In this document: positions 4,424-46,549 of the stretch, piece after piece | How positions within the stretch are numbered: the stretch's first letter is position 1 | Layout: each line of letters begins with the position of its first letter | Assembly: GCA_964573395.1 (NCBI GenBank) | Contig: CAZNJI010000005.1 | Coordinates: forward strand, 7,759 to 71,758 | Length of the DNA: 64,000 nucleotides | Direction of reading: 5' to 3' | DNA from: an uncultured Candidatus Saccharibacteria bacterium | Lineage (GTDB): Bacteria > Patescibacteriota > Minisyncoccia > Phycocordibacterales > UBA9973 | Notes under the pieces: generated by a model | Database searches by the model: none | What the model was told of the DNA's origin: nothing | The model's input: only the letters and a program-made list of their open reading frames with translations | Translations under genes and position numbers: made by a program

Positions 4424-5386
4424 CTAGAGCGAGAAATTTTTAATGTTATACAGATCGAGTTCTTCTTCGCTTTCTTTCACCTCTTCCTTCGAGCGATCGT
4501 CCAGCAGTTCAGGGTTTGCTTCTGCTTCAGCAGAAACGACGGTTGCAGGCTCTGGCGCAGCGGCCGGCGCATCAAATACTTCCATTAAATGGCGCAAATC
4601 CTCAGGAGAGAAAAAGTCGATGGTAATCTTCCCACCAATTTCCTTCCGTTCAATATGCACTCGAGTGCCGAGCGTTTCCTGGAGCTTTGCTTCAAGCTGG
4701 TCGAATTCAGGATCGGGCAAGTAATTTTTCTTTCGAACGCGATCGGTTGCGATTTTTCGGGCAATTCGTTCTGCTTCGCGGACGGTAATTTTCCTAAAAA
4801 GAATTTCCTTGAAAAGCGTCTGCTGCTCTTCAGGCCGGTTCGAGAGCATCATCAGCGGACGCGTATGCCCTTCGCTGATTTTTCCGGCAGAAAGCGCGTC
4901 TAAAATTTCCTGCGGGAGCGAGAGGAGCCGGAGCGAGTTTGAAACATATTCGCGGCTCTTCCCTACCTTTTCGCCAATTTGAGTGTGCGTGAATTTAAAT
5001 TCGTCAGCCAGCCGCAGAAACGCCCGCGCCCGTTCTACCGGATTCAAATCTTCGCGCTGCAAGTTTTCGATGATCGCGATCTCGAGCTTCATCATGTTGT
5101 CGTCTCCCACCCGTATGAGCGCCGGCACCTGCACTAACCCGGCAAGTTTTGAAGCGCGCAACCGGCGCTCGCCAGCAATGAGCTCGTATTCCGTTACCAA
5201 GCCGCCATCCTCGGTTTCCCGTTCAATGCGCGAAACTACGAGCGGCTGTAGCACGCCGTACTGGCGAATCGATTCTGAAAGGTCTTTGAGCGGCCCTGGT
5301 TCAAATTCACGCCGCGGTTGGTACGGATTCGGCTGGATTTTATCGACATCAATGAAGAAAATCGAATTCGTATAGAGGTTTGACAT
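4424..5386 (-). CDS. parB: Chromosome partitioning protein ParB
   Basis: ParB N-terminal box NPYQPRREF..LKDLSESIRQYGVLQPLVV..YELIAGERRLRASKLAG, followed by an acidic low-complexity C-terminus. Confidence 0.85.
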   Translation of the reverse strand: MSNLYTNSIFFIDVDKIQPNPYQPRREFEPGPLKDLSESIRQYGVLQPLVVSRIERETEDGGLVTEYELIAGERRLRASKLAGLVQVPALIRVGDDNMMKLEIAIIENLQREDLNPVERARAFLRLADEFKFTHTQIGEKVGKSREYVSNSLRLLSLPQEILDALSAGKISEGHTRPLMMLSNRPEEQQTLFKEILFRKITVREAERIARKIATDRVRKKNYLPDPEFDQLEAKLQETLGTRVHIERKEIGGKITIDFFSPEDLRHLMEVFDAPAAAPEPATVVSAEAEANPELLDDRSKEEVKESEEELDLYNIKNFSL

Positions 5387-5568: not shown

Positions 5569-5652
5569 TGCCGGAGTGGCGGAATGGTAGACGCAATCGA
5601 CTCAAAATCGATCGGGAGTAATCCCATGAGAGTTCAAGTCTCTCCTCCGGCA
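5569..5652 (+). tRNA. tRNA-Leu(CAA)
   Basis: Manual fold: acceptor gccggag/ctccggc, anticodon stem aatcg/cgatc with loop cuCAAaa, long variable arm, T-loop ttcaagt. Confidence 0.85.
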
Positions 5653-6988: not shown

Positions 6989-7028
6989 AAATGGACTGCA
7001 AAACTATAACAAAAAAGCAGTCTTTCGA

Positions 7029-7747: not shown

Positions 7748-8152
7748 TTACCCAATCGGCTGGCCGATGCTTTCGCAGTAGCGAGCGAAGTCGTCGAATT
7801 GGGAACCGAGTTCGCGGGCAAGCTGATCGATTCTTCCTGGGCTCATGCAATCATTCGGGTAGAAGTTAATCGTCCGAGAAGTATTGACGTATTCGTACGA
7901 GGAAGAATTTGTTCGAGTATCATAGTATCCATCATAAACAGTTGCTCGAAGCGTAAAAGGCCGGTAAGAGCGATATTCGTACAGATCACCCAAATGGTTT
8001 CCGGTACGGAAGTCGTGGCCAATAAGCATTCGGTTCGCAACCATCGAGCGGCCAGTTCCGCGAGGAATGGCAATGCCAATAAGCACTCCAATAATGAGGG
8101 CAACAATACCGATAGCGGCAAACAATCCGCGGCTGTTTTGATTCTGTTCCAT
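7748..8152 (-). CDS. Hypothetical N-terminally membrane-anchored protein
   Basis: MEQNQNSRGLFAAIGIVALIIGVLIGIAIP is a single TM segment followed by a Tyr/Arg-rich soluble domain. Start is taken at an internal ATG (8152). Confidence 0.45.
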   Translation of the reverse strand: MEQNQNSRGLFAAIGIVALIIGVLIGIAIPRGTGRSMVANRMLIGHDFRTGNHLGDLYEYRSYRPFTLRATVYDGYYDTRTNSSSYEYVNTSRTINFYPNDCMSPGRIDQLARELGSQFDDFARYCESIGQPIG

Positions 8153-8197
8153 ATATTCGGATACTACCCCTATTTTCTGATTTGGCAAGCGCCGGGC

Positions 8198-8290
8198 AGG
8201 ATTTGAACAGGAAAAAGGTCGGGAAAACACTCTGTTTTCCCGTGAAGGAAGGATTGGGAAAACCGTGGGTTTCCCAGGGGGTTCATATTT
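8198..8290 (-). repeat. tRNA-3'-end-associated two-hairpin module, copy A
   Basis: 8198-8217 is an exact 20-nt direct copy of 8432-8451 (3' end of tRNA-Tyr). It is followed by hairpin gggaaaac-actct-gttttccc and hairpin gggaaaaccgtgggtttccc. Copy B is homologous. Confidence 0.6.
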
Positions 8291-8298
8291 CTGTCTGG

Positions 8299-8340
8299 CG
8301 CAAATGTAAAAACCTCAGTTCCTCTGAGGTTTTTACATTT
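8299..8340. other. Long perfect hairpin (17-bp stem) aaatgtaaaaacctcag/ctgaggtttttacattt
   Basis: Seen directly in the sequence. Confidence 0.6.
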
Positions 8341-8427
8341 ATCACCAACCCCCGTAGTGGAAGGCAATCGGAGCAACGCGGAGACGTTGGATACCGCTGT
8401 GTGTCCAAGACGGGGGTCGGGGGTTGG

Positions 8428-8513
8428 TGGTGCGCCGGGCAGGATTTGAACCTGCGTAGCCCGAAGGCGCCTGATTTACAGTCAGGTGTAATTGACCACT
8501 CTACCACCGACGC
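8428..8513 (-). tRNA. tRNA-Tyr(GUA), CCA encoded
   Basis: Minus-strand fold: acceptor gcgtcgg.., anticodon stem cctga/tcagg with loop cuGUAaa, long variable arm, T-arm gcagg-ttcaaat-cctgc, 3' gcgcacca. Confidence 0.85.
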
Positions 8514-15227: not shown

Positions 15228-15284
15228 CAAATAAAAAAAGAGTTTTGTGGTCAGGGATAAATACATAATTTGCAGGAATCTCAC

Positions 15285-15371
15285 AAGCTGGGAAACCCAC
15301 GGTTTTCCCAATCCTTCCTCCACGGGGAAACAGCAGTTTCCCCGACCCCCTTCTGGTTCGAATCCTGCTAG
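15285..15371 (+). repeat. tRNA-3'-end-associated two-hairpin module, copy B
   Basis: 15291-15319 is an exact inverted match to 8252-8280. Hairpin ggggaaac-agca-gtttcccc shows a compensatory G-C versus A-T change relative to copy A. It ends with ggttcgaatcctgctag, identical to the sense 3' end of tRNA-Lys on the other strand. Confidence 0.6.
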
Positions 15372-15424
15372 ACTAATCAATGTAACAAAAAATTCCTAGC
15401 AATAAGCTAAGAATTTTTTATTAT

Positions 15425-15498
15425 GTGCGCCTAGCAGGATTCGAACCTGCGACCGTTTGCTTAAGAGGCAACTGCTCTACCGACTGAGCTATAGGCGC
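15425..15498 (-). tRNA. tRNA-Lys(CUU)
   Basis: Minus-strand fold: gcgccta.. acceptor, anticodon loop cuCUUaa, T-arm gcagg-ttcgaat-cctgc. Confidence 0.8.
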
Positions 15499-33974: not shown

Positions 33975-34023
33975 AATGTTTCTGTGTCTTGAAAAAGTGT
34001 TAAAAGAGTACTAGTATAGCGGC

Positions 34024-34338
34024 ATGACAAAAATAGTCAAAATAAGCTTGGTATTTCTAGGGCTTTTCCTTACATTCCGGGCATTGCCGGCGGAAGCCCA
34101 GTATTACCCGTTCTATTACCAGCCGCAGCCATGTTGCCTCAGTTACGCCTGGCACGATCCGCTGACCACACTCAGCTACGCGCCATTTTACGGAGGCTAC
34201 CCGCAATCATACGGATGGAATCAGCCATACCTTGGGAATGGTTTTGGAAACAACTTCGGCGGATGGGGCTACCCGGGATTTTCTTACGGAAACGGCGGAT
34301 ACTTCAACCTTGGCGCAAGCTTCGGTTTCGGCTGGTAG
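34024..34338 (+). CDS. Small secreted Gly/Tyr/Pro-rich protein
   Basis: Signal peptide, then YYPFYYQPQ..GNGFGNNFGGWGYPGFSYGNGGYF low-complexity sequence. Confidence 0.4.
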   Translation: MTKIVKISLVFLGLFLTFRALPAEAQYYPFYYQPQPCCLSYAWHDPLTTLSYAPFYGGYPQSYGWNQPYLGNGFGNNFGGWGYPGFSYGNGGYFNLGASFGFGW

Positions 34339-34611
34339 AACGGTATCACAAACGATGCTATAATCATCGGGCATTTTTAAAATGCTTAGTTCTTTATGTA
34401 TTAATATTCCCCTGTAGCTTGCGGTGGAGTGAGGCTTGGGATGGGACCCAAGCTGCAAGACCTTTTGAGATAGAATTGAGCATGCGAAAATTATATCCAA
34501 AAGGTGTACAGCTCCTGTAAGGAGGTCGCCGAGGCGACTGCCTACCGCGTAACAATTTATTTTGGCAATCATTAATGATGGTTACCAAATAGAACGTTAC
34601 AAAAAAAATAT

Positions 34612-34976
34612 TCCCCTGTAGCTCAGCGGTAGAGCAGTCGCCTGTAACATGAACAATGTTCAAATAGCAGCTTCCCGATCGAAAGACGGGTCGAAAAACG
34701 AAGTGAATTGACTGGAAATCCTGATCACACAGGATAATCAGCAGCCAAGCCCAGCCGTGAATCCAATAAGTTATTGAACTCACAACTGGGAAGGTTCAGA
34801 GACTATCTCGAAAGAGAGTACTCTCAGCCGTATTTTGTTTATAAAAAAATACGGCTAGGCGGAAGCGCTTCGCACCTTCCCTTTTTATTAAGAATGGTGA
34901 TGATATAGTCCATACCCGCAGTAATGCGAGAATATATGTAAGCGATTGGTCGTAGGTTCGAATCCTACCGGGGGAG
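34612..34976 (+). tRNA. tRNA-Asn(GUU) interrupted in the anticodon loop (between positions 35/36) by a ~293-nt intron-like insert (34646-34938)
   Basis: 5' exon: tcccctg-ta-gctc-agcggta-gagc-a-gtcgc-cugu. 3' exon: uaa-gcgat-tggtc-gtagg-ttcgaat-cctac-cggggga-g. Acceptor 7/7 paired (with U6-G67), and the G73 discriminator is typical of tRNA-Asn. The insert ends in G and contains CAGCCAAG and AGACUA P7-like motifs. Confidence 0.55.
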
Positions 34977-36641
34977 CAAAGTCGAACAAACATCCCTGAA
35001 AATAGGATTTTGTTCCGAAACATCAATGATATTTTCAGGTTCGAACTGTATGTTCTTCTGTTTTGCCGCACTTAGTCCATCAATTAGAGTTTGAAACTCT
35101 TCTGCGTTGGTAATACTCATTTTTTCTTCATTCCAGATAAGGTTCGATTTAAACTTCTTCAAAACAACTCGTTTAGCCTTGGTATCATCTGAAGAAAGAA
35201 CATCCACGAAAGATTGTGTTAAATCAACAATTTCACGCATTCGTATTGACCAATCCTGTCTTTGTATTGATTGCGTTTTAAGCTCAGCAACTTCCCTATC
35301 AATTTTTTCAGCATCTTTTTTGTAATCATCGGGAGAAGTTACACCATCGTTTAAATACTGTCGTGCTCGGTCCTTGCGTGCAAGAAGCTGTTCAAGGTGA
35401 CTTTTTCTTCCTTGTTCAATCGTTACAATGTGCTCTACTTCTCTATCTTTCATTTCTTGAATATTTCTCCTGCACCAATCCGCTAAAGCTGGCGATAGTT
35501 GAAGATTTTCCTTAACGTAGCTGATTAAGTAGTCAGTAATACAAGATTCTTCAATATATCGAGCTTTGAGTTTTTTCTTTCTACGACTGACGTTGTAATA
35601 GTAATGGTATGAGAGGTATTTAGGGCTCTTAATTTCTGCAAGTGTTTTGTTGCATTTAGGGCAACAGTCCTTGTTCTGGTAGGAGAATTTATATTTGCAC
35701 TCGCAAATTAATTGAAGCTTTATATCTGGACCAATAAATTCACCGTAAGGAGATTTAATAAAACCACTATAAGGAGTTAAGTGCTCTTTTGTCTTTGGAA
35801 CACTTCTATCTCCAAGCATTCTGCGTACCTTGTAATGTTCTGCCTCGGTTATCATTCGAGGTAATTCTGGAGCAAGCTCATATCGTTCTCCTCCATAGTA
35901 AAAGAAGCCTGCAAAAATAGGGTCTTTCAAAATTTCATAAATACGTGAGTAAGTAATAAATTTCCCACCAATTCTTTTACTCTTCCGTGTTGTGAACTTA
36001 ACTTCATTTACTGCCCACTCATAGAGCTGTGTTCCGGAATAGCTTCCGGAAAGAAACATACTGAACATCTGTTTGATAATGTTAAACCGATCCTCATCTA
36101 CTAACCACTTCCTATTTCCCTTTTCTTCGCTTCGATCATTTTTAAACCCAAGAGCCGCAAGACCATGTGGGTATCCCATGCTAGCTTTCTTTGCCTGCCC
36201 TCGTTTTACGTTTACCGAAAGATCTCGACTAAACTGATTAGCTGAACCAAATTCAACTGACATAAGGAGTGCATTTTCGTTTGGAAGATATACTTTAGTA
36301 GGAGTAATAATTGCTTTGATGATTCCTTTTTGAAGTAAGTCTATTATGAGCCCTCCATCAACCATGTTTCGAGCAAGACGGTCCAATTTCCAGCAGATAA
36401 TTGCATTGATTTTTCCCTCATGTAGGTCTTTAATCATTCGCTTATAAATCTCACGCTCTCCGGCAAAATGTGCCGATTTTGCTTCTTCATACAATTCTGA
36501 CTTCACTATTTCCCAATATGAAATTAGACGCTCTGCCTCTTCCTTTTGGGCTGGAATTGAAAGGACCTGTTTTTCTTCAGATTCTTGCGATTTCCTACAA
36601 TAAATTCCTGGAATTAAATCTTTTATTTGGTTCCTGTCCAT
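34965..36641 (-). CDS. Large serine recombinase (site-specific integrase)
   Basis: Resolvase catalytic domain (IYCRKSQESEEKQ..S, KLDRLARN), a recombinase domain, and a Zn-ribbon CECKYK..CCPKC. The last 4 codons overlap the tRNA-Asn T-arm/acceptor. Confidence 0.9.
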   Translation of the reverse strand: MDRNQIKDLIPGIYCRKSQESEEKQVLSIPAQKEEAERLISYWEIVKSELYEEAKSAHFAGEREIYKRMIKDLHEGKINAIICWKLDRLARNMVDGGLIIDLLQKGIIKAIITPTKVYLPNENALLMSVEFGSANQFSRDLSVNVKRGQAKKASMGYPHGLAALGFKNDRSEEKGNRKWLVDEDRFNIIKQMFSMFLSGSYSGTQLYEWAVNEVKFTTRKSKRIGGKFITYSRIYEILKDPIFAGFFYYGGERYELAPELPRMITEAEHYKVRRMLGDRSVPKTKEHLTPYSGFIKSPYGEFIGPDIKLQLICECKYKFSYQNKDCCPKCNKTLAEIKSPKYLSYHYYYNVSRRKKKLKARYIEESCITDYLISYVKENLQLSPALADWCRRNIQEMKDREVEHIVTIEQGRKSHLEQLLARKDRARQYLNDGVTSPDDYKKDAEKIDREVAELKTQSIQRQDWSIRMREIVDLTQSFVDVLSSDDTKAKRVVLKKFKSNLIWNEEKMSITNAEEFQTLIDGLSAAKQKNIQFEPENIIDVSEQNPIFRDVCSTLLPR

Positions 36642-37009
36642 AATTGGTTATCTATATTATTTTAACTCATTTTTACGTAGCACCCGACCTTTCTGCCTAT
36701 AATGCATGGCATACCGATAATTTATGTAACAATCTAGGTATAAATACTGACGGCCTCTGCCCTAGAACTCCTGCATATGGTTCATTCTCTGAAGTTCCCT
36801 CTCTTAGGCATCATATTTATTGACCATATGAGGTGCTTATTAATGGGCTGGGTGCGGTGTAGGTCGTCGAAACGCATTATTCCCAGCTTTCACATAAACA
36901 CCCCATGTAGCCTTCATTTTCGTGTACATTGACCAATGTACCTTATTAAAGCGGTGTCTTTTTATCGCGAGTATTCACCAAAGTTCGCTGTGTAGATTGA
37001 ATTGTCGAA

Positions 37010-37225
37010 TCATTTTTTTTCCTGTTTAATAGACTCAACAAATAATGTAAGTAGAAAATCACCGATATTATTTATATCTGTATCAGATAGTTTTTGTGCG
37101 CCAGAATGACCTATTTCGTTTTGTAAGACAAAACGTAAATCATCAATCGCTTTTTGACTTAATCTTCTTATCTCTTCCACTGTTGTGTGCCTATTAAATA
37201 AACACAGAACAAAAAAGCCGAGCAC
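37010..37225 (-). CDS. Hypothetical small protein
   Basis: ORF followed by terminator 37211-37252 (aaaaaagccgagc..gctcggctttttt). Confidence 0.3.
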   Translation of the reverse strand: MLGFFVLCLFNRHTTVEEIRRLSQKAIDDLRFVLQNEIGHSGAQKLSDTDINNIGDFLLTLFVESIKQEKK

Positions 37226-37514
37226 CTAATATTAGGTTGTCTCGGCTTTTTTGTAAGGGAATACAACCTAGGTTAAATTAGGTTATATTCCCTTAGAGAA
37301 ATAAGGAAACGTTGCACTGTTCTATAACTCGAATCGCTGTTTCTTGATGGTCACATAAAGCGCCCTCACAAGTTGCTAGAATTTGACTTTAAAAGTTCTG
37401 TAGCAAAACACCCACCACAACTGTAAGGTATTGGAGTACATATTGTTGTGAGGGATGTTTTACTCTCCAATACCTAATTTTATTTTAGTAAATAAAAATC
37501 AAATTGTCTATAAG

Positions 37515-37530
37515 TTGATTTAGAAATCAA
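37515..37530. promoter_or_regulatory. Palindromic site TTGATTTAGAAATCAA (copy 1)
   Basis: Identical 16-mer with 7-bp inverted arms, repeated at 38304. Confidence 0.4.
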
Positions 37531-37544
37531 GAAATCAAGTTTAA

Positions 37545-37691
37545 TTAATCCTCAAAACCACCTAATAAAGCGATTATTATTCCCATAACAACAAGTGAAG
37601 CAATCGCTGTCCAGAAACCGCCCATTAATAATGCAATGATAAAAACAATTACGGCTAATATTCTCATGAATATATGAATAAAAAACTTCAT
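37545..37691 (-). CDS. Tiny hydrophobic protein (48 aa, below track cutoff)
   Basis: Manual translation: MKFFIHIFMRILAVIVFIIALLMGGFWTAIASLVVMGIIIALLGGFED. Confidence 0.3.
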   Translation of the reverse strand: MKFFIHIFMRILAVIVFIIALLMGGFWTAIASLVVMGIIIALLGGFED

Positions 37692-37693
37692 TT

Positions 37694-37924
37694 TTAATCT
37701 TTCTTAACCAAACTATATTCCTTCGGTTTCTTTCCAGTAATCTTATGAATTACTTTATTAGCGATAGTACATCCAATTACTACAGCAATGATTAAAGGTA
37801 TAAGTCCTTGAACAATAAGACCATTAACAATACCTATTACAATCAAAACAATAAATAACCCAACAATATAAGCAATGATTATTCTTCCTGTACTAGGCTT
37901 CTTAATATTTAACTCTTCATTCAT
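37694..37924 (-). CDS. Small membrane protein (2 TM)
   Basis: 76-aa ORF adjacent to the tiny hydrophobic ORF. Confidence 0.4.
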   Translation of the reverse strand: MNEELNIKKPSTGRIIIAYIVGLFIVLIVIGIVNGLIVQGLIPLIIAVVIGCTIANKVIHKITGKKPKEYSLVKKD

Positions 37925-38303
37925 AGTTTAATTTTTTGTTTAAAAACAATAAAACATTCTTTTAATAATTAAATGGGTTTTTGTATATAAAACGCAAAAA
38001 GCCCAACACGAAGGTGGTAGCTTGCGCTACCCATACCAGTTTCCCGGTATGACCAGTGACGGCAGACCCTTCGATGTTGGGTTCTTTGCACGTCACTGGT
38101 TTTTCTTCACCATGCCAGCCCTAGGGGCTGGTTTAGGCTACTTCGCTAAGTATTACACGAAAATATGAAGTTTTCTACAGATAGGTTTAAAAACCCAAAA
38201 ACCCAAGAAATCCATATTTTCTTAGGTAGATAAGAGTCCGGTTTTTAAACCGGAAAACCCGATATTTTGGTTTAAAAACCAAAAAAACAATAACCCTTAA
38301 AAA

Positions 38304-38319
38304 TTGATTTAGAAATCAA
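38304..38319. promoter_or_regulatory. Palindromic site TTGATTTAGAAATCAA (copy 2), 36 bp upstream of the 38356 operon
   Basis: Exact repeat of the 37515 site. Confidence 0.4.
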
Positions 38320-38355
38320 TTAATCAGAAATTGGCTTGTAAACACAAATATAGCT

Positions 38356-39273
38356 ATGATGCCAAATATGGAAAACTCTCCCACCCCTAAAACAATGTTT
38401 ACTGATACATTTCCTGATGATATTACGTCTGACGAAGAATTAGATGTTATAAAAGCTCAATATCCAGATTACGATGATTATTATGTGGCGAGTGGTTCCA
38501 TTAAGGAACGTAGAGAAAGTTTTGATGCAATGTATCAAATATACGCTCCTTATGCCGATAAACACTTTCTTTCCGATCTAAAAAAGCATTTCCATGAACG
38601 AACATGGGAAATGTATATTGGATATACCCTAATAAAAAATGGTGTCTCATTTACATCCACAAATAAAGGACCAGATATTCTTATTGAAACACCTGAAGGG
38701 AAAATATGGATTGAAGCTGTTGTTTGTAACAGTGGAGATGGCCCAGATCGTGTCCCAGCTATGATATATGGTGTAGCCTCAGATGTACCCGATGATGAAA
38801 TGATTATCAGAATGGCAAATAGCCTTGATGCCAAATTTAAAAAATATCAAAAATATATTAATGAAGATATTGTGTCAGTAGAAGATAAATTAATCATTGC
38901 TGTAAACGCCGGTATTTTTAGCCACGTAGTTGATGGAGATATGCCACTTATTCTAAAAGCAATTTTTGCTATCGGATTCCGAACATTATCATTACCAATC
39001 GACGGAAAAGGACCAGTAAAACCAGGGATCTCGACTAGAAATTTTATTGAAAAGAAAAATGGAAGCAAGGTTGCAACCACTTTCTTTTTAGAAAAAGAAC
39101 ATGCTTCAATTAGTGCTGTTTTATATACCAGTAGAACAGTGCTTAATCAAGATGAGCCAGCTGGGACTAATATAATGGTAGTTCGTAATCCAATAGCTAC
39201 TAATCCTCTCCCGGATGATGCGTTCCCATTTATGCATCAAATTATTACTAAAGGAGGCATTATAGAATTATGA
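38356..39273 (+). CDS. Hypothetical protein (possible PD-(D/E)xK-like nuclease), first gene of a 3-gene operon
   Basis: 305 aa with GPDILIETPEGKIWIEAVV resembling a D..ExK core. Its stop overlaps the next start (ATGA). Confidence 0.45.
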   Translation: MMPNMENSPTPKTMFTDTFPDDITSDEELDVIKAQYPDYDDYYVASGSIKERRESFDAMYQIYAPYADKHFLSDLKKHFHERTWEMYIGYTLIKNGVSFTSTNKGPDILIETPEGKIWIEAVVCNSGDGPDRVPAMIYGVASDVPDDEMIIRMANSLDAKFKKYQKYINEDIVSVEDKLIIAVNAGIFSHVVDGDMPLILKAIFAIGFRTLSLPIDGKGPVKPGISTRNFIEKKNGSKVATTFFLEKEHASISAVLYTSRTVLNQDEPAGTNIMVVRNPIATNPLPDDAFPFMHQIITKGGIIEL

Positions 39274-40268
39274 AAACCTGCATTTATTGTAGATCGCAGA
39301 ATCAATCTTTATTTAAAGGGGTTGAGCATCTTATACCCCAAAGTTTTGGTACTTTCAGCTCTGAGACTCCAACGTTAAAATGTGTTTGTGATGAGTGCAA
39401 TGCTTTCTTTGCAAAAGAACTCGACCAAATACTTGCTCGTGACAGCTGGGAAGGTGTAGAGAGATACAAAAAAGGAATTAAATCCAGAGAACAAAGACCT
39501 ATTAAGAGACTAAAATTTAGTCTCGAAAATACCCCAGAAATGGGCGAATTTGGCGGAATGGTTTTTGAAGGTGTTGATGCTACTACAGGAAAATTACTAC
39601 ATCCGAAAGGGCAATTTCATATAAAAAACATTAAAACTAAAAAATTTGATGTCTTCTTTACAGATGCAATAAAAAATATAAAACTTGATGATGAAACGTA
39701 TGGAGTAAAAGGCACGAGAGAAACAAAAATATTTGCAAATTCTGAAGAAGAACACCAAGCTGTTTTTGATGAAGTAAGAAAAATTATTCCGACTTATAAA
39801 ATAAAAGAAAAATTTCAACCTCCATTTATTCAAGGTAGAAAAGATGATGAAGTAATTGAACTTCCAATTTGGATTGAGGGAACTATTGATCATCCTATAA
39901 AAAGAGGATTAATAAAGATTCTTCTAAATTTTTCAGCTTACTATATTGGAAATGAAGAAGTTCTTAAGTCGGAATGGGATAAAGCAAGAGACTACGTTAG
40001 ACTTAATTCAGAACCAATCTTGGGTAAAGCTGATACTAAACCTTTCTGGGGAGATGAAACAGAAGTAATGCGTCTCCCAAATGATAGCTTTAATATTCTT
40101 GTTGAGAATAAAGGTAAAGATGTAATAGGAAAAATCCAAATATATAATTTTTATACCCACACCTTTATTCTCGCTGAGAATCACAGTATTCCTATAGGAA
40201 AAGAAAAAGCTATGCGCTTTACTAAAGGAAAACCTCCATACCGCGCAGAAAAAAGAACAGTGTTTTAA
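39270..40268 (+). CDS. HNH endonuclease-domain protein
   Basis: N-terminal CIYCRS..FKGVEHLIPQSFG HNH motif plus a second Cys pair CVCDEC. Confidence 0.65.
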   Translation: MKTCIYCRSQNQSLFKGVEHLIPQSFGTFSSETPTLKCVCDECNAFFAKELDQILARDSWEGVERYKKGIKSREQRPIKRLKFSLENTPEMGEFGGMVFEGVDATTGKLLHPKGQFHIKNIKTKKFDVFFTDAIKNIKLDDETYGVKGTRETKIFANSEEEHQAVFDEVRKIIPTYKIKEKFQPPFIQGRKDDEVIELPIWIEGTIDHPIKRGLIKILLNFSAYYIGNEEVLKSEWDKARDYVRLNSEPILGKADTKPFWGDETEVMRLPNDSFNILVENKGKDVIGKIQIYNFYTHTFILAENHSIPIGKEKAMRFTKGKPPYRAEKRTVF

Positions 40269-40302
40269 ATATTAATTAAAAACCACCTTTTTAGTTATTT
40301 TT

Positions 40303-40980
40303 ATGAAGCTACTAGAAATATTTAATACTCGGGAATTAGCGACAATAGTATGGGTCATTATTTTATTTGTATATCTTATCCGAAAACCAGAAATTCGCTC
40401 TAGTTTACTGCGATTTTTAAAAAGTGTTTTTAAATTATGGAAAATAGTGCTTAGCATGATTATCTACATCATTTTCTGTATTTTTATTTTGCACAAAATG
40501 TCGTTCTGGAATATGGATTTACTTAAATTAACAATTTTTTGGTTTTTTGGTTGGGCTTCTGTAATGTTTATAAACCTCAACGATATACAAAAAAATAAAA
40601 GTTACCTCAAAAAAGTACTAGTTAATATTTTAGGGTTAACAGTTGTTATTTCATTTATCACAAATTTCTATACATTTCCCTTTATAGCTGAACTGATCCT
40701 TTTACCAATCATTACGATCCTTTTAGTATTCACAGTTATGCCTCAAATTAAAGGCAACCTAAAAGTAAATAGACTCATAAACCAAGTACTAATTGTTTTT
40801 GGACTTATTGTATTAGCTATTAATATAAAGAGAGTAATATGTAATTTCCAAACTTTCTCCTCTATGAACACTCTACTAGAATTTCTTCTACCAATAATCC
40901 TATCCTTAATGTTTTTACCGTATCTTTATTTACTATTCCTTTATTCAGAATGTGAACAAAAGAAAATAAAGGGTAAATAA
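40303..40980 (+). CDS. Polytopic membrane protein (about 6 TM), probably co-transcribed with the HNH gene
   Basis: Hydrophobic throughout; 34-nt gap from the upstream gene. Confidence 0.5.
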   Translation: MKLLEIFNTRELATIVWVIILFVYLIRKPEIRSSLLRFLKSVFKLWKIVLSMIIYIIFCIFILHKMSFWNMDLLKLTIFWFFGWASVMFINLNDIQKNKSYLKKVLVNILGLTVVISFITNFYTFPFIAELILLPIITILLVFTVMPQIKGNLKVNRLINQVLIVFGLIVLAINIKRVICNFQTFSSMNTLLEFLLPIILSLMFLPYLYLLFLYSECEQKKIKGK

Positions 40981-41039
40981 TATTCCGAAGATCTGTACAT
41001 AAGGCGGAGTTCTTCTGGTAATTTGTTACAATCTAACCT

Positions 41040-41801
41040 ATGCCAACAGAGGCTCATTTTACGCTATACCTCGATGAAACTGGGGATCATCTTCTTTACT
41101 CAGAGGAAGAATACCTTCAAAATTCAGAACTAGAAAGTCATTGTACTCTCTTAGGCTACATCCTTCAAAATGACGTTAAGCCTATTGTAAAAGAAGGACT
41201 CAAAGCCTTGAAAAGAGAATTTTGGAAGACGGATGAAGTTATATTACATAGTGTAAAGATACGTCATAAACAAGGATGCTTCGCTTTGTTTCATTACATA
41301 CCTGAAATGTATGAGAAATTTAAGGTTCGATTAATGGAGATTATTAAACTATCTAACCCCGTGATTGTATGTAGTTCACTAGACAAGCGATTATGGATTA
41401 AAAAATATCCAAGGAAATACTACTTTAAAGACGATCCTTATGATCAGGCATTTATTTTTCTTCTGGAAAAATATGCGCGTTTTCTTAACGATCAGAAATA
41501 CGACAAAGTGGTTGGTCGAATATCTGTTGAAAAAAGAGATCCCGCCAGAGACAAATCGCTAAGAGAGACATATACGAGCGTAAAGAGAAATGGTACTCAA
41601 TTTCGCAATAAAAACTTTTTCGATAAACTCTCGGATAAAATGGATTTTGACAGTAAAGGATTCAATATTCCCGGTTTGCAATTGAGTGACTATTGTTCAT
41701 ATCCTTTTTATATAAACCATAAATTTCCTACTCGAGATAATAAATTATATGAACTACTTAAGACATATATTTATAACTGTGGACATAAAAAATGGCCCTA
41801 A
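41040..41801 (+). CDS. DUF3800-like protein
   Basis: N-terminal LYLDETGD resembles the DUF3800 signature (hydrophobic-YIDESG); 253 aa. Confidence 0.5.
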   Translation: MPTEAHFTLYLDETGDHLLYSEEEYLQNSELESHCTLLGYILQNDVKPIVKEGLKALKREFWKTDEVILHSVKIRHKQGCFALFHYIPEMYEKFKVRLMEIIKLSNPVIVCSSLDKRLWIKKYPRKYYFKDDPYDQAFIFLLEKYARFLNDQKYDKVVGRISVEKRDPARDKSLRETYTSVKRNGTQFRNKNFFDKLSDKMDFDSKGFNIPGLQLSDYCSYPFYINHKFPTRDNKLYELLKTYIYNCGHKKWP

Positions 41802-41944
41802 AAAACACAAAAGAGCTCGTATTGAGCTCTTTTGTGACCCCTCATTCGAAGGGAAAATATCACTGAATGATACCTTTTAATTATATATTAAAGAACAATC
41901 TTGTATACATAGTTATTAACAGTCCATCAACGTTCGGAACAAAC

Positions 41945-42451
41945 TCAATGGATAGAAATAAAACCATCATCATAATGCTCTTTAAATTTAATTAAGTTAG
42001 TGTCATCAAGTTTGTTTTGAGAAATATACAATTTTGCCGCCTCGATTATGTCTTTACAAAATGTATGAATATTGATTATCATTTTTCGTGGCTGTATAAC
42101 TCCTTTATTATAATTACCTCCCAAATAACCGAAATGAGATGAACTTTTTTCCGTTAAAACCACAAATTTATCAAAAACGTCCTTAAAATACTTCTCATCT
42201 TGAGTTGTTACATCGTCAGTTCCCTGGTGTAGAGCAGCACATCGAAAAGCCCAACAAATTTTCCCGGGAATGCCTCTACTTGCATATGTAGGCATATTTT
42301 CGTTAAACCATTGTATATATTTCTCTCCTAAACCCCTCTTTCCTTCTTTTATTGAAACGCATATATCTGGAATTGTTAAGGCAATAAATAATGCTCCGAA
42401 GAAGGCTTTATTTTCTAAACATATCTCAATTGAATCACCCAATTCATTCAT
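41945..42451 (-). CDS. Hypothetical protein (downstream gene of a 2-gene operon)
   Basis: 168-aa ORF, 3 nt after the upstream gene. Confidence 0.4.
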   Translation of the reverse strand: MNELGDSIEICLENKAFFGALFIALTIPDICVSIKEGKRGLGEKYIQWFNENMPTYASRGIPGKICWAFRCAALHQGTDDVTTQDEKYFKDVFDKFVVLTEKSSSHFGYLGGNYNKGVIQPRKMIINIHTFCKDIIEAAKLYISQNKLDDTNLIKFKEHYDDGFISIH

Positions 42452-42454
42452 AAA

Positions 42455-42817
42455 CTAAGATTTAACTATCTTCTTTTTTATTGAATCAACAAATAGGCGG
42501 AATGCAGGACGGTTCTCTTTATCGTAAATAATCTTTACTCCCAGTAAGTGGCCTTTATCACAAGAGAGATCTTTTTTTGAGATAGAAACTTTTGGCTCAA
42601 TAATCCTATCATGGTACATACGGCGAAGATTGCCTGGACCATCTTTTTGATAGTGGCAAATGTGAGCTCCGCATTTCTCGCATGAGATAGCGAGCAGCCG
42701 GGAGTACCCGCCTCTTACCTTCTTATATCGATCATTCTTGAAGCTATTCTTTTTCACGTCGTGAGTATAGCATTCCGAACATCCTCCAACGTTCGGAGCC
42801 ATCAAAAAACAGCTCAA
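42455..42817 (-). CDS. Hypothetical Zn-ribbon protein
   Basis: CSEC..CEKCGAHICH Cys/His cluster; 120 aa. Confidence 0.4.
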   Translation of the reverse strand: MSCFLMAPNVGGCSECYTHDVKKNSFKNDRYKKVRGGYSRLLAISCEKCGAHICHYQKDGPGNLRRMYHDRIIEPKVSISKKDLSCDKGHLLGVKIIYDKENRPAFRLFVDSIKKKIVKS

Positions 42818-42871
42818 ATACAGGGCTGTTTTTTGTTGCCCCAGTAGGGTTCAGAACTCAAATTTGTTACT

Positions 42872-43582
42872 ATGATAGTAATGAAAAAGTTTATTATTTA
42901 CACACTACTGTCAGTATGTCTTCTCATAGTATGCGGATATGGTTTGCTTCAAGTTAGCAAATCCCGCACCTTTCAATTCTTTGGTAGCATTGTAAGTCGG
43001 GTTGATACTGAAGAAAAAGTAATTGCCCTTACATTTGATGATGGACCAGAAAGTTATACCAATGAGATATTGAGTGTGCTTAAAAAGAAACAAGTAAAAG
43101 CTACGTTTTATGTAATTGGTGAGAGATTGCAAGAAAACTTAGAGATTGGAAAACGTATTACAGACGAAGGCCACGAATTAGGTAATCACTCGTATACTCA
43201 TCAGCGATTTTTATTCAAATCACAATCCTTTATTGATAGCGAGATACAAAGAACTAATCAACTTATTCGTGAGACAGGATATGGAGGAGCTATCACGTTT
43301 CGCCCGCCATATGGGAAAAAACTATTCGGGCTTCCGTGGTATCTAAATAAACACAACATTGAAACCATTATGGTTGATGTTGAACCCGATACCTATGGAA
43401 CAACATCCGACTTTTTTGTTGAATATACAGTTGCTAATACAAAAGCGGGTTCTATTATTTTGCTTCATCCATTCTGTGAGACCTGCATCGAACAAAGAAA
43501 AGCTGTTCCACTCATAATAGATGCACTAAAGGAAAAGGGTTATACCTTTGTTACTGTTTCTGAGCTACTTTCTAAAAGATAA
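42872..43582 (+). CDS. Polysaccharide deacetylase (NodB-homology domain)
   Basis: TFDDGPESYT.., ATFYVIG.., GHELGNHSYTH motifs; N-terminal TM. Confidence 0.8.
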   Translation: MIVMKKFIIYTLLSVCLLIVCGYGLLQVSKSRTFQFFGSIVSRVDTEEKVIALTFDDGPESYTNEILSVLKKKQVKATFYVIGERLQENLEIGKRITDEGHELGNHSYTHQRFLFKSQSFIDSEIQRTNQLIRETGYGGAITFRPPYGKKLFGLPWYLNKHNIETIMVDVEPDTYGTTSDFFVEYTVANTKAGSIILLHPFCETCIEQRKAVPLIIDALKEKGYTFVTVSELLSKR

Positions 43583-43595
43583 GTTTAGAGAAATC

Positions 43596-43702
43596 AGTTC
43601 TGAAGTTTTGCCTCAGGAAATATCTCAAAAATCTTAGAAAACTCAATATCTCTTTTGATTGCAGTCCAGTTGAGAGTTCTGAACTCGTCCACTAGAGGGA
43701 GC
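43596..43702 (+). repeat. Conserved ~107-bp intergenic repeat R1 (cassette-boundary-like)
   Basis: tAGTTCTGAAGt ..ctcaaaaatcttagaaaactc.. gAGTTCTGAACtcgtccac-agagggagc. Four copies lie in the island. Confidence 0.7.
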
Positions 43703-43708
43703 AAATAT

Positions 43709-43736
43709 TTGACTTATTTATATTTTATGCTATTAT
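43709..43736 (+). promoter_or_regulatory. Sigma70-like promoter after R1 (TTGACT-16-TATTAT)
   Basis: Seen in sequence; conserved with the promoter after R3. Confidence 0.55.
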
Positions 43737-43885
43737 AAAAATAATAGTGTTCTTTGTTGTTTTTATAGGTTCATAGCTAAAAGTTACTTAAAACTTTAGG
43801 TATTTTTTAGCTATGACCACGGTGGTCTAGTTCCCGCTTACGGACAGTAAGCAAAAACGGGCTATCAGCCTATAAATAAATCAAT

Positions 43886-44521
43886 ATGAAATACAACGAG
43901 TTTAACCTCGGTCAGATTGAAGCTGTCTTCAACAAGCTTGGAGGAGTATACGGTGTAAAACGTTTTCTCTCTGGTCAAACGGAAGTAAGAGCAATTCCTA
44001 AAAGCTTTCTCTGGTGGAAAAAAGTTACTATAGGAAAATTTAATTCTATAGGAGAAGTGTGGCGGGCGCTTACTGAAAAAGGTGTGGAATTAAAAGAAGG
44101 TATTCCATATGGCTCCAAAAAATGTGCCCTACGACATCGCTCGGTAACTATGTTAAACAGCCCATTGTTTACCCTAGCCAAGGTAGAAGAAGAAATCGAA
44201 CTTGTATCAGTAAAATTAAAAGATTTAGGTTTCGTAGATAGTGGTTTTGTACCAAAAAAGGAAGTTCTTAAATGGGCTTCACAAATTGGATTAGAACCCT
44301 GTCCTGCAGAAGTAGTAATTGACCTGCTTTTAAATCACCAACTCGAAGAAACAAGAAGAAAAGATGTTCAAATTGTGATGGAACCTATACGTGTCGCAGA
44401 TGACCATCTGAACTTCAGGTTAAGAGAAGATGGTGGGTGTGGGGCGTTACTTTTAGATTGGGATGTTTCTGATAAATTTTCCGACTTTGAGTGTTACGTA
44501 TTTCGTTTAGTAAACAAATAA
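43886..44521 (+). CDS. Hypothetical protein (cassette gene)
   Basis: 211-aa ORF followed by terminator hairpin cctcacgca..tgtgagg-tttttt (44531-44562). Confidence 0.5.
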   Translation: MKYNEFNLGQIEAVFNKLGGVYGVKRFLSGQTEVRAIPKSFLWWKKVTIGKFNSIGEVWRALTEKGVELKEGIPYGSKKCALRHRSVTMLNSPLFTLAKVEEEIELVSVKLKDLGFVDSGFVPKKEVLKWASQIGLEPCPAEVVIDLLLNHQLEETRRKDVQIVMEPIRVADDHLNFRLREDGGCGALLLDWDVSDKFSDFECYVFRLVNK

Positions 44522-44562
44522 CAAAACAAGACCTCACGCAATAACTATGTGTGAGGTTTTTT

Positions 44563-44669
44563 AGTTCTGAAGTATCATCAAAGGAAATACCTCAAAAATC
44601 TTAGAAACTTCTAAATCTCTTTTAATTGCAACCCAGTTAAGAGTTCTGAACTCGTCCACGAGAGGGAGC
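44563..44669 (+). repeat. Intergenic repeat R2
   Basis: Same architecture as R1. Confidence 0.7.
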
Positions 44670-44783
44670 CATTTTTTGAAGCTTATTTCGTAACAGTTAA
44701 TTTTGATACCCAAATAGGGTTCAGAACTTTACATAAGAAAAGCCCGCCATTACTGACGAGCTTTTTTTGTTTTTAATCGTTGA

Positions 44784-45140
44784 TTACTTGGTTTGCAACT
44801 TCCACACTTTTGATGTTTCCATTACATTACCTTTCCTTGTGCGTGTATTGTAATAAAATGCACGCTTCTCGGATTTACCCTCATCAACTGAGTTAGGTAA
44901 TCCTTGAATAAGGAACTCTCCAATCCAACTTTCACCTGAACCATCTTCAGGACCTGCGAGATGCACGGTAGCATTAAACTTTTTCCCAATATCCATTGTG
45001 CTTTTTATAGCGCTGGTGTTAATGGAGAACTGGATTGTCTTTTTATCAAAAAGACTGGCTTGTAGGTCATACTTCGATGGACCATTTGTGATTGCACATA
45101 ATCCTTCAGGAAGTAGTGCTGTTTTGGATGTGATTACCAT
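44784..45140 (-). CDS. Hypothetical protein (cassette gene)
   Basis: 118-aa ORF. Confidence 0.4.
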   Translation of the reverse strand: MVITSKTALLPEGLCAITNGPSKYDLQASLFDKKTIQFSINTSAIKSTMDIGKKFNATVHLAGPEDGSGESWIGEFLIQGLPNSVDEGKSEKRAFYYNTRTRKGNVMETSKVWKLQTK

Positions 45141-45263
45141 AACGATAATTGTTTATTTTGAAGAACAGTGAGGTTACGACCCTCGATTACGTTGCTGAAT
45201 AACTCAGTCTTGTTTACATTGTAGCATACTACAAGATAAATGTCAATATATAGCCAATTTACT

Positions 45264-45370
45264 AGTTCTGAAGTGCCATCATCGGAAACATCTCAAAAAT
45301 CTTAGAAAACTCCAATTCCCTTTTGATAGCAACCCAGTTAAGGGTTCTGAACTCGTCCACTAAAGGGAGC
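45264..45370 (+). repeat. Intergenic repeat R3
   Basis: Same architecture as R1. Followed by a TTGACT-17-TATTAT promoter at 45377-45405. Confidence 0.7.
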
Positions 45371-45526
45371 TAATACTTGACTTTTCTATATTTTTATGCT
45401 ATTATATATTTGTAATAGTACTTTGAGATACTTGGTTATTTAATGTTGATTTTGTTGGGTTTTCTGTGTTCCCTGCTTGGGATTATAGACAACTCAATAA
45501 TTTCTAACAATTAAATAAACAAAAAA

Positions 45527-46000
45527 ATGAACAGTTATCAAAAAAGTGAAAGGGTTACAAAAATCCTTTCTATATTTTCAATTGTGTCGTTTGTTATCGC
45601 CATTATTTCGTTTGTAATTTATGCCTTCGTTGGACGAAAAACATTCGACACTATCGCCGTGACTGGTTTAACAGCGTTCATGCTGCCCATTCTGGTGCTG
45701 CAAGTCGCCATGCCAGCAAACTTCCACATCTTTGGAACAAAAGGTATAGGGATCCCCTGGTCGCTATTTTTCTTCCTGTTTATATTCCCGTTCGCTGACC
45801 TGTGGTTCTTCTCTGGGTTAAGCACTTTATTCAACATTATTCCTGATTATCACTCTGTGATGAACGGATCAATGAAAGAACTGGTGCGTAATCAAGCCAT
45901 GACAGAAGCATGGACATACATCGGGAGTATATATGTGGGACTAATTAGTATCGGCCTGCTGTTAAGAAAAAAACAAAAAGAAAAAATTGTTCTGGGATAA
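45527..46000 (+). CDS. Hypothetical membrane protein (cassette gene)
   Basis: 157 aa with 4 predicted TM. Terminator at 46021-46051. Confidence 0.45.
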   Translation: MNSYQKSERVTKILSIFSIVSFVIAIISFVIYAFVGRKTFDTIAVTGLTAFMLPILVLQVAMPANFHIFGTKGIGIPWSLFFFLFIFPFADLWFFSGLSTLFNIIPDYHSVMNGSMKELVRNQAMTEAWTYIGSIYVGLISIGLLLRKKQKEKIVLG

Positions 46001-46054
46001 CAAACAACCCGCCAACACGGAAACCCGTTCGTTGAGCGGGTTTTCTTTTTGTTT

Positions 46055-46161
46055 AGTTCTGAAGTACTACCACTGGCAACAACTCAAAAATCTTTGAAAA
46101 CTCCAAATCTCTTTTGATGGCAGTCCAATTCAGAGTTCTGAACTTGTCCAAGAGAGGGAGC
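46055..46161 (+). repeat. Intergenic repeat R4
   Basis: Same architecture as R1. Confidence 0.7.
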
Positions 46162-46549
46162 AAAGTAAAAAAGACCTTTTCAGGTCTTAGGTTGATACCC
46201 GCTCCATTTAGTTTTACTTCTTGCATTTAGCACGATGACGCGGACAAGAAAACTGCTTGGAACTAAAAAAACTTCGCGAACAGTTAAAAGTCCCTCTATT
46301 TTATAATAGTCGGAGCGACTGCCTCAACTAAAAACAAACTTTTGCTTTAACTATAGGAGAGTTTGAACCTATAGCATCCCCAAGGATTAACTTTGCTTGG
46401 AGAACCACAAATTTTTAAGCGGATACCGTTCTTGGTATGTATTCTCTCTTCTTCATTATACTAGCACGTTCCCCCCCCCGCCGAATGGCAGGATAAACTC
46501 CAATGTTCAGAGCTCCTAAAAATCTTAAACCAGCAACACTGCGTTGGCC

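Follow-up and report, generated by a model that had tools for sequence, protein, structure and literature searches.

A candidate family of small, non-coding elements with target-copied arms beside tRNA genes of Patescibacteria

CTX-phi is reportedly integrated at dif by Xer recombinases in the form of a folded, single-stranded attP hairpin, an account that goes back to Val et al. in 2005 and to later work. Elements with a tyrosine integrase are said, following Williams in 2002, to target the 3′ ends of tRNA and transfer-messenger RNA (tmRNA) genes, and single-strand intramolecular triplexes have reportedly been described by Sklenar and Feigon. Patescibacteria have tiny genomes in which few mobile elements can be recognised, and very few non-coding RNAs have been described from them. 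The stretch of DNA analysed here (hereafter the window) comprises 64,000 nucleotides (nt) of an uncultured Candidatus Saccharibacteria bacterium (assembly GCA_964573395.1, contig CAZNJI010000005.1, positions 7,759 to 71,758) and carries a small structured element (copy A) beside its tRNA-Tyr gene. On balance, this element is taken to belong to an undescribed family of mobile elements confined to Paceibacteria-type Patescibacteria, whose members are small, non-coding and non-autonomous; a permuted neighbour and a third copy (copy B) 7 kb off belong to the family as well. The anatomy of the element, the derivation of its arms from the target, the covariation of its P3 helix and tail, its strand asymmetry and its variable presence among relatives are matters of observation and are described below.

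A preliminary description of the window had drawn attention to an exact 20-nt repeat of the tRNA-Tyr 3′ end next to a pair of hairpins. The repeat, GCGCCGGGCAGGATTTGAAC, is real and present exactly twice in the window, where shuffles lead one to expect 0.00 such matches; its second copy is at 8432-8451 and its first at 8189-8208, not at 8198-8217 as had been given. The second copy falls inside tRNA-Tyr(gta) and is the antisense of the T-loop, the 3′ strand of the T-stem and the 3′ strand of the acceptor stem, with the discriminator and CCA excluded. The interval between the repeats measures 223 nt and holds no open reading frame (ORF) of a known family. The hairpin pair is present within it (8221-8241 and 8256-8275), as is the stem-enclosed domain, in which 8343-8353 pairs with 8419-8429 over 11 bp with a 2-nt overlap with the CCA of the tRNA. 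The perfect 17-bp hairpin likewise exists, its strands being 8302-8318 and 8324-8340, although it does not start at 8299. The homologous second copy near another tRNA is confirmed by a 46-nt match (96%) between 8232-8277 and the reverse complement of 15288-15333, so that copies A and B are mutually inverted, and the compensatory change from A-T to G-C in the first hairpin proved genuine and family-wide at that pair (AU 49, GC 21).

Three features had been overlooked. Positions 8281-8301 (GTTCATATTTCTGTCTGGCGC) are a degenerate inverted copy of the 20-mer which closes a three-way junction, 8343-8429 is a second, permuted copy of the module, and copy B also holds a tRNA fragment (15355-15371). 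The module is ordered as arm, P2 hairpin, 14-nt linker, P3 hairpin, pyrimidine tail and arm, and the plus strand of 8189-8301 folds as a three-way junction with a minimum free energy of -43.6 kcal/mol (z = -3.4). The suggestion of a small RNA or a miniature tRNA-targeting element, as opposed to chance, thus pointed in the right direction and is partly supported, in that more than 220 copies exist, mostly at tRNA ends and with arms copied from the tRNA. As to the follow-up proposed at the time, the search for copies of the core beyond the window succeeded, P3 covaries across 72 distinct cores and empty tRNA-Tyr sites were found in some relatives; the Rfam scan matched the modules to no family.

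How widespread is the element? An exact 20-mer of the core, searched against the species-representative genomes of GTDB, gave 100 loci (designated by L and a number), 12 genomes being matched twice. Patescibacteria, Parcubacteria, Paceibacteria or “Saccharibacteria” stand in the titles of 98 of the 100, the last name in those of third-party metagenome-assembled genomes, and the lineages include Nomura-, Kaiser-, Yonath-, Zambryski- and Taylorbacteria. The ClpB of the window is itself closest to Paceibacteria proteins. The two exceptions are L046, titled Prolixibacteraceae, where the 20-mer is matched without the core, and L063, titled Flavobacteriaceae, which has a normal core beside tRNA-Ser. 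A second core pattern yielded at least 120 additional copies from metagenomes, bringing the family to more than 220 in genomes and metagenomes. A covariance-model search of 709 kb of loci added just four copies, all intact, which argues for few copies per genome and few decayed ones.

A phage or plasmid origin was considered and rejected, two scans of viral contigs having given 0 matches to the element, and no description of it was found in the full-text literature that was searched. No Rfam 15 family is matched by the modules, whether judged by gathering threshold or by E-value: scanned at the gathering threshold, the window gave tRNAs, a group I intron and LOOT only, and E-value scans of copies A and B returned chance-level hairpin matches far under threshold. 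A tRNA-like or tmRNA gene was considered and rejected, ARAGORN calling neither within the modules and the T-stem not being formed in the fragment. A known ribozyme class, considered for the circular permutation described below, was rejected as well, with no Rfam ribozyme match at E up to 10 for either copy.

The architecture is best described on the “displayed” strand, the orientation in which the core reads CTGGGAAACCCACGGTTTTCCC (P2), AATCCTTCCTCCAC (linker), P3 and then GA followed by the pyrimidine tail. Here the layout runs from a direct repeat, DR(a), in which the antisense end of the neighbouring gene is copied directly, through a short junction and the core to X(b), where the same gene end recurs inverted, and then through a spacer (S′) to DR(c), the genuine end of the gene on the opposite strand. 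S′ is either a bidirectional terminator or a stretch of 17-22 nt with the motif TCACTTCGTTC, and X(b) and the real gene end often make up one long palindrome centred on the terminator loop (L003, L029, L053). The element comprises ~110 bases, an invariant core of ~70 nt being closed by the stem P1, both strands of which copy the last 12-60 nt of the adjacent gene. Among 112 tRNA-associated copies, at least 12 nt of the tRNA 3′ end are shared by the 5′ arm, DR(a), in 90, by the 3′ arm, X(b), in 87 and by both in 75. The direct repeat beats every shuffled control in 45 of 78 copies; it measures 7 to 62 nt (median 17), frequently starts at the T-loop in tRNA loci and may include flank outside the tRNA. 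Across loci the arm stems share no common sequence, and each matches its adjacent gene.

In about 70 of the 100 genome copies and in 62 of the 120 metagenome copies listed, about 130 together, a convergent tRNA directly follows on the opposite strand. None of the listed metagenome copies has such a tRNA on the same strand, and at least 20 isoacceptor types are represented among these neighbours. The 3′ end of rpsI (uS9 ending ...APQWSKR) is the target at about ten loci, a tmRNA in one copy (L076), which is convergent and has arms copied from the tmRNA 3′ end, and the 5′ coding end of a protein gene, for a glycosyltransferase, was seen once (L017). At the rpsI loci L042, L048, L052, L067 and L006 an ORF on the gene strand runs through the core (...VEEGLGKPWVSQ...) and ends in a decayed duplicate of the uS9 C-terminus (...WSKR, then stop), an ORF that might be recorded as a small protein by gene callers. 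Peptide coding of the core was nevertheless rejected: VEEGLGKPWVSQ is read in some rpsI loci, but the frame varies by locus and the nucleotides are invariant without wobble variation. The motif TCACTTCGTTC, or GCTTCGC, which reads GAACGAAGTGA or GCGAAGC on the other strand, recurs in three peripheral positions (Table 1).

The core is much better conserved than the flanking repeats and stays intact where the repeats have decayed, for example at the rpsI loci. The three-way junction is the minimum-free-energy fold of the module. Compensatory changes are found at 7 of the 9 pairs of P3 (75 cells, 72 distinct cores), a result matched by 0 of 500 shuffles, and register controls collapse. P2 is invariant in variant A, its outermost pair changing from G-C to U-A in variant B, which has an additional small hairpin in the linker. 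Thirty-five nucleotides of the core are invariant, and large insertions are confined to the P2 loop, the P3 loop and the linker. The linker GGAGGAAGG resembles 16S rRNA at ~1176-1184, and TAGCGA resembles ssoA CS-6; we take both likenesses to be probably chance.

The tail follows the changes of P3. Its number of C residues tracks the number of G residues in the 5′ strand of P3, and where that strand changes from G to A, the tail changes from C to T. When the tail is set against the P3 purine strand in parallel register at an offset of +1, 328 of 395 positions (83%) are compatible (G with C, A with T), compared with 284.7 ± 4.7 in shuffles; 0 of 2000 shuffles reach 328, and the mutual information between tail and P3 is 0.57 and 0.49 at the two variable positions. 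Antiparallel Watson-Crick pairing of tail and P3 was tried and rejected, only 39% being compatible. Covariation in a mirror register is the signature of base triples, and the tail is a candidate third strand that covaries with P3 in a Hoogsteen-compatible register. A hairpin, a 2-nt turn and a strand mirroring the hairpin's own strand constitute the design of an intramolecular triple helix. The core has the look of such a design, and judged by this covariation it probably contains a triple helix with the tail as third strand on P3.

Which of the two strands folds? The mismatches of P3 on the displayed strand are 10 A.C against 2 G.U, that is, 10 G.U on the complement, and in 48 loci against 20 it is the complementary strand that gives the more stable P1. 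Of 53 P3 tetraloops, 31 are GNRA when read on the complementary strand and 0 when read on the displayed one. CGAAG occurs 105 times on the complementary strand against 16, and GCGAAGC 40 times against 2, these being found in junction, spacer and variant-B insert. The four asymmetries agree, so the folding strand is taken to be the complement, on which the neighbouring tRNA is normally sense and the putative third strand is purine-rich. The window is an exception in that, at both of its tRNA-Tyr copies, the folding strand carries the tRNA in antisense. Among the hallmarks of DNA are purine-motif triplexes and C-GAA-G mini-hairpins, d(GCGAAGC) being the classic extra-stable DNA mini-hairpin, and GNRA loops are typical of RNA; all-RNA purine-motif triplexes are not known to be stable. 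Hexamers resembling a -10 box show no enrichment at a fixed position on either strand, and promoter consensus scans of L102 and the window, apart from the downstream gene's own promoter, turned up nothing of relevance. We slightly favour single-stranded DNA as the active form, read-through RNA being almost as likely.

Comparison of relatives reveals gain, loss and rearrangement. In L101 and L102 (ClpB 83-84% identical) the module follows tRNA-Tyr in the usual convergent layout, as variant B in L101 and variant A in L102, and relatives at 77-78% ClpB identity have empty sites. The ClpB-tRNA-Tyr loci of L103 and L104 are empty, as is the tRNA-Tyr of L105; CAA(G/A) and a terminator come after the tRNA in L103 and L105, and in L104 the next gene begins at once. 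The proximal copy in L101 and L102 has a flank of CAA(A/T)G plus terminator like that of the empty L103 and L105 sites, and the distal repeat consists of tRNA sequence only and gives way to unrelated sequence. The core of the window is inverted with respect to L101 and L102, with the perfect arm still distal, an arrangement which fits an inversion caused by recombination within the arms.

Other loci add to this picture. Tandem A and B copies at one tRNA occur in L011, L092 and the window. In L017 (3742-3925) the element and a 38-nt duplication (36/38) split the start of the glycosyltransferase gene: the original N-terminus survives in the upstream copy as a fusion with the element, and an ATG has been gained by the downstream copy, where a CTG-to-ATG change appears to have created a new start codon. 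L061 (about 5590-5640) and L068 (about 2730-2775), which belong to one genome, have a near-identical tail, X(b) and spacer beside different tRNA-Arg genes. Near-identity despite differing tRNAs implies exchange between copies, and because L068 shares the X(b) of L061 type, its inverted arm matches the tRNA of the other locus. This points to ectopic gene conversion, or to movement that carried the arm along. Copies within one genome differ in P3.

The permuted copy of the window is found in the interval from the 17-bp hairpin to tRNA-Tyr. It runs from the P3 3′ strand through tail, P2, insert and linker to the P3 5′ strand, lacks P1 and is fused to the CCA of the tRNA. The tRNA-Tyr of the window encodes this CCA (GGCGCA-CCA, 8428-8431), and five related tRNA-Tyr genes run GGCGCA-CAA, without CCA (Table 1). 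The junction could derive from a mature tRNA 3′ end, or be a coincidence. A tail-before-P2 pattern found no further permuted copies among the 120 metagenome copies listed, and the covariance model is blind to permuted copies. The folding strand of copy B, judged by the asymmetries of the family, is the minus strand. In nine ORFs that neighbour copies A and B, Pfam matched housekeeping genes only (ParB, MiaA, ClpB, a class-V aminotransferase, DUF4446), with no recombinase or transposase among them.

Table 1. Coordinates of the element copies and associated features. Positions are those of the window unless a locus is named.
Feature	Position	Strand	Remarks
Copy A outer arm	8189-8208	+	20/20 identical to antisense tRNA-Tyr 3′ end; pairs with 8281-8301 (P1)
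Copy A purine tail aggaaaaaggtc (minus strand GACCTTTTTCCT)	8209-8220	+	mirror repeat of P3 strand; candidate triple-helix third strand
Copy A P3 hairpin (first hairpin of the preliminary description)	8221-8241	+	covarying helix
Copy A 14-nt linker gtgaaggaaggatt, family consensus GTGGAGGAAGGATT	8242-8255	+	almost invariant
Copy A P2 hairpin gggaaaaccgtgggtttccc + ag	8256-8277	+	invariant within variant A
Copy A inner arm GTTCATATTTCTGTCTGGCGC	8281-8301	+	degenerate sense-like tRNA-Tyr 3′ end; pairs with 8189-8208, three G:T pairs on plus strand
Perfect 17-bp hairpin	8302-8340		where relatives have spacer/terminator S′ between tRNA and module
Second copy, diverged, variant-B-like, circularly permuted	8343-8429	+	abuts CCA end of tRNA-Tyr, 2-nt overlap
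Permuted copy, P3 3′ strand	8343-8353	+	
Permuted copy, linker	8354-8368	+	
Permuted copy, insert	8369-8385	+	
Permuted copy, P2	8386-8409	+	
Permuted copy, tail	8410-8418	+	
Permuted copy, P3 5′ strand	8419-8429	+	
tRNA-Tyr(gta), source of copy A arms	8428-8513	-	
Copy B 5′ arm and junction ttGCAGGAatctcacaag	15270-15287	+	pairs with 15355-15371
Copy B core	15288-15354	+	P2 15288-15309, linker 15310-15323, P3 15324-15343, tail 15344-15354
Copy B 3′ arm GGTTCGAATCCTGCTAG	15355-15371	+	17/17 identical to T-loop, T-stem and acceptor start of convergent tRNA-Lys(ctt); inverted orientation
Terminator-like bidirectional hairpin (A6, stem, T6), spacer S′	15386-15419		between copy B and tRNA-Lys
tRNA-Lys(ctt), convergent target of copy B	15425-15498	-	
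Element copy with its convergent tmRNA gene	L076 2817-3211 and 3275-3344	+ and -	
Related tRNA-Tyr ends without CCA	L101 6820-6828; L102 6815-6822; L103 5312-5320; L104 5305-5312; L105 about 7020-7026		
Motif TCACTTCGTTC in module-tRNA spacer	L009, L010, L011, L023, L095, L100 and others		
Motif TCACTTCGTTC in long junctions	L029, L033, L035		
Motif TCACTTCGTTC in variant-B inserts	L134, L143, L175, L177		

If the element is mobile, how might it move? The folding strand would form the three-way junction, the tail fitting into the P3 groove to make a triple helix, and the folded stem would mimic the duplex target. Insertion could then take place by recombination or template switching between the folded single strand and the gene end; it would regenerate the gene end and leave target, core, inverted target, spacer and target in series. 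A putative host factor would recognise the core. One extension is put forward more tentatively. The element may represent a new class, a folded single strand (most likely DNA) with a natural intramolecular triplex in a three-way junction and a stem rewritten at each insertion to mimic the target end. In effect it would be a protein-free, target-programmed attachment site that lands past tRNA, tmRNA and ribosomal-protein genes of the reduced Paceibacteria genomes without damaging them.

Several points weigh against a mobile element. No transposase, recombinase or reverse transcriptase is linked to it, and its acquisition of new arms at a new target is left unexplained. A mechanism like that of CTX-phi does not fit targets that are not dif or a stem that is different at each locus. 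As the tRNA keeps its flank and terminator in L101 and L102 and the distal repeat is tRNA sequence only, a simple duplication by staggered cuts is not valid at every locus. Some copies, among them L102 and the rpsI loci, have a weak P1. The core outconserves the repeats and copies within a genome differ in P3, so that purifying selection in place, and hence a host function, fits at least as well as selfish spread. The covariation counts ignore phylogeny, and the invariance of P2 and the linker is partly a matter of ascertainment because both search patterns lie inside them, a concern that is limited by the covariance-model search, with its four extra and wholly intact copies in 709 kb.

Much of this would suit a family of host non-coding RNA genes that is not primarily mobile, an alternative that we consider possible while doubting it. 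The module would be transcribed, most likely as a 3′ trailer that arises by read-through from the tRNA, tmRNA or rpsI gene, and P1 would reproduce the acceptor/T-arm minihelix of the neighbouring tRNA, so that RNase P, RNase Z and the CCA-adding enzyme could excise the module. In another version the arm complementary to the tRNA 3′ end would alternate between two partners, the pre-tRNA and the distal copy. The core would bind a conserved cellular factor. The extreme conservation of P2 and the linker beside the covariation of P3, the GNRA tetraloops on the folding strand and the fact that this is usually the sense strand of the upstream gene all favour it, as do the hairpin insertions of variable length and the circular permutation, which are typical of structured RNAs. 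It accounts for conservation in place, the core being intact despite decayed repeats, and the permuted copy lies within the tRNA-Tyr transcription unit. Yet a promoter-like signal at a fixed distance is lacking on either strand, a strong bidirectional terminator separates gene and module at many loci, P1 is not tRNA-like at rpsI or L017, and the folding strand is antisense to the tRNA in both window copies at tRNA-Tyr. The purine-rich third strand and the C-GAA-G triloops are traits of DNA, and the coding-region insertion with its 38-nt duplication, the empty sites and the occurrence of A or B at one site need mobility anyway. The two explanations, host RNA and mobile element, are not exclusive.

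Replication offers a different origin for the repeats. Serial template switches at terminator hairpins of highly expressed genes would yield direct, inverted and direct copies of a gene end (“duplication, inverted triplication, duplication”), with the core as a functionless fold-back sequence, and palindromes centred on the terminator loop and variable repeat lengths are what this would produce. We regard it as unlikely: it leaves unexplained why one 70-nt core recurs, with covarying helices and 35 invariant nucleotides, at more than 220 independent loci in many genera, and it likewise fails to account for the strict orientation and the conserved spacer motif. Least probable is the starting point of the preliminary description, that the repeat is a scar of tyrosine-integrase-mediated integration, here an island or prophage in the tRNA-Tyr 3′ end that was later almost wholly deleted. 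The direct repeat speaks for it, at 20/20 nt at tRNA-Tyr and likewise in the 90 of 112 tRNA-associated copies, as does its start in the T-loop, which is that of many attL/attR pairs. Three of four defining tests failed, however. No integrase or transposase, remnant or cargo lies between the repeats or near either window copy, every copy has an additional inverted copy of the target, and the repeat length (7 to 62 nt) and inner boundary vary. The same core sits beside at least 20 different tRNAs, a tmRNA, rpsI and the 5′ end of a protein gene, and viral contigs gave 0 matches. In two related filled sites (L101, L102) the tRNA retains its own flank and terminator, resembling empty sites, which means that the distal repeat does not represent an original 3′ end that was displaced.

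A small mobile element thus remains the preferred explanation. Were it correct, a target would be chosen and duplicated by way of a stem copied from that target, which would be a new insertion mechanism and possibly a route to programmable insertion. Were the module instead an RNA, it would constitute a new and widespread class of structured RNA tied to tRNA 3′ ends. Either way, the element would supply a concrete case of a natural intramolecular triplex and a marker for genome dynamics in uncultivated lineages of the candidate phyla radiation. It also bears on annotation, since partial tRNA copies and short spurious ORFs in the core (VEEGLGKPWVSQ...) can mislead gene callers.

The window has other features of interest. 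A promoter-like site (TTGCCA, 16 nt, TAGTAT) at 8161-8188 on the minus strand adjoins the outer arm of copy A and precedes an orphan gene for 134 amino acids (7748-8152, minus strand); a hydrophobic N-terminal stretch suggests that the product is a membrane protein, and it has no homologue among 5.8 billion proteins, its own record aside. A gene for tRNA-Asn(GTT) at 34613-34975 on the plus strand is split by a group I intron (Rfam match 34560-34931) and was not called by ARAGORN, although both halves are visible (5′ tcccctgtagctcagcggtagagcagtcgcctgt, 3′ ...gattggtcgtaggttcgaatcctaccgggggagca); it matches the phenomenon of intron-split tRNAs in Patescibacteria (PMC13011429). A LOOT RNA (RF03000, 84 bits) lies at 38016-38139 on the minus strand in a low-GC stretch (about 34000-47000; 31-42% against about 48-50% elsewhere), which may be a foreign island. 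The parB gene is at 4424-5386, and gene orientation switches at ~12.7 kb, from minus-strand genes on the left (ClpB, aminotransferase) to plus-strand genes on the right (DUF4446, IF-2, RbfA, tRNAs). This hints that the window is near the replication origin, which, if true, would bear on the strand bias of the element.

How does the element compare with described systems? No known family fits it, and each of the nearest systems shares only some of its traits. Like the repetitive extragenic palindromic (REP) sequences and their composites (BIME, REPIN) mobilised with RAYT, and like the palindromes of IS200/IS605, it is a small, non-coding, structured repeat at gene 3′ ends, often between convergent genes. 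Those elements are active as strand-biased hairpins of single-stranded DNA and are non-autonomous, as is proposed here. In contrast to them, the element has few copies per genome, long and variable target duplications and an inverted target copy; no shared flanking or target tetranucleotide was seen, and no Y1/HUH transposase was identified for it, the Pfam comparison having covered nine ORFs beside the window copies. Miniature inverted-repeat transposable elements are likewise short and non-coding; they are dispersed, depend on factors in trans and are bordered by target duplications. The sole inverted repeats of the present element, however, are its target-derived arms, which are different at each locus, and its duplications have no fixed length (7 to 62 nt).

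Integrative elements that target tRNA and tmRNA genes similarly have a direct repeat from the T-loop to the 3′ end and leave the gene end intact, but the element described here has neither integrase nor cargo, and it has an extra inverted repeat, protein-gene targets and a variable boundary. The attC sites of integrons are imperfect single-strand hairpins conserved as structure, with strand selectivity arising from asymmetries and with variable or branched terminal structures, all of which recall the element. The distribution of conservation is the reverse, since in attC the stem ends (R and L boxes) are conserved and the loop is variable, whereas in the element the core, which corresponds to the loop, is invariant and the stem is locus-specific; IntI, attI and a gene cassette are lacking as well. 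As regards the tail, a third strand mirroring a purine-pyrimidine helix is shared with the triplexes of the MALAT1 and PAN elements for nuclear expression, of telomerase, of SAM-II pseudoknots and of H-DNA, and the order of hairpin, 2-nt turn and third strand is that of designed intramolecular triplexes. The candidate triplex differs from these in having no U-rich loop with an A-tract, and its third strand is purine-rich, of the G.G-C and A.A-T type; we know of no third strand of this type in natural RNAs.

CTX-phi and the integrative mobile elements exploiting Xer recombination (IMEX) also differ from the element in several respects. It targets the adjacent gene end and not dif, its stem is locus-specific and without a common sequence, it is geneless at 110-170 nt, and both a recombinase and strand exchange are hypothetical in its case. 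Indirect hints of a single-stranded DNA intermediate come from the strand-asymmetric G:T pairs, the GNA and GNRA loops and the purine mirror repeat. The integrated topology of target, loop, inverted target, body and target is shared and found in most loci, the stem of the folded strand would likewise mimic the duplex target, no recombinase encoded by the element would be needed, and tandem copies occur in both.

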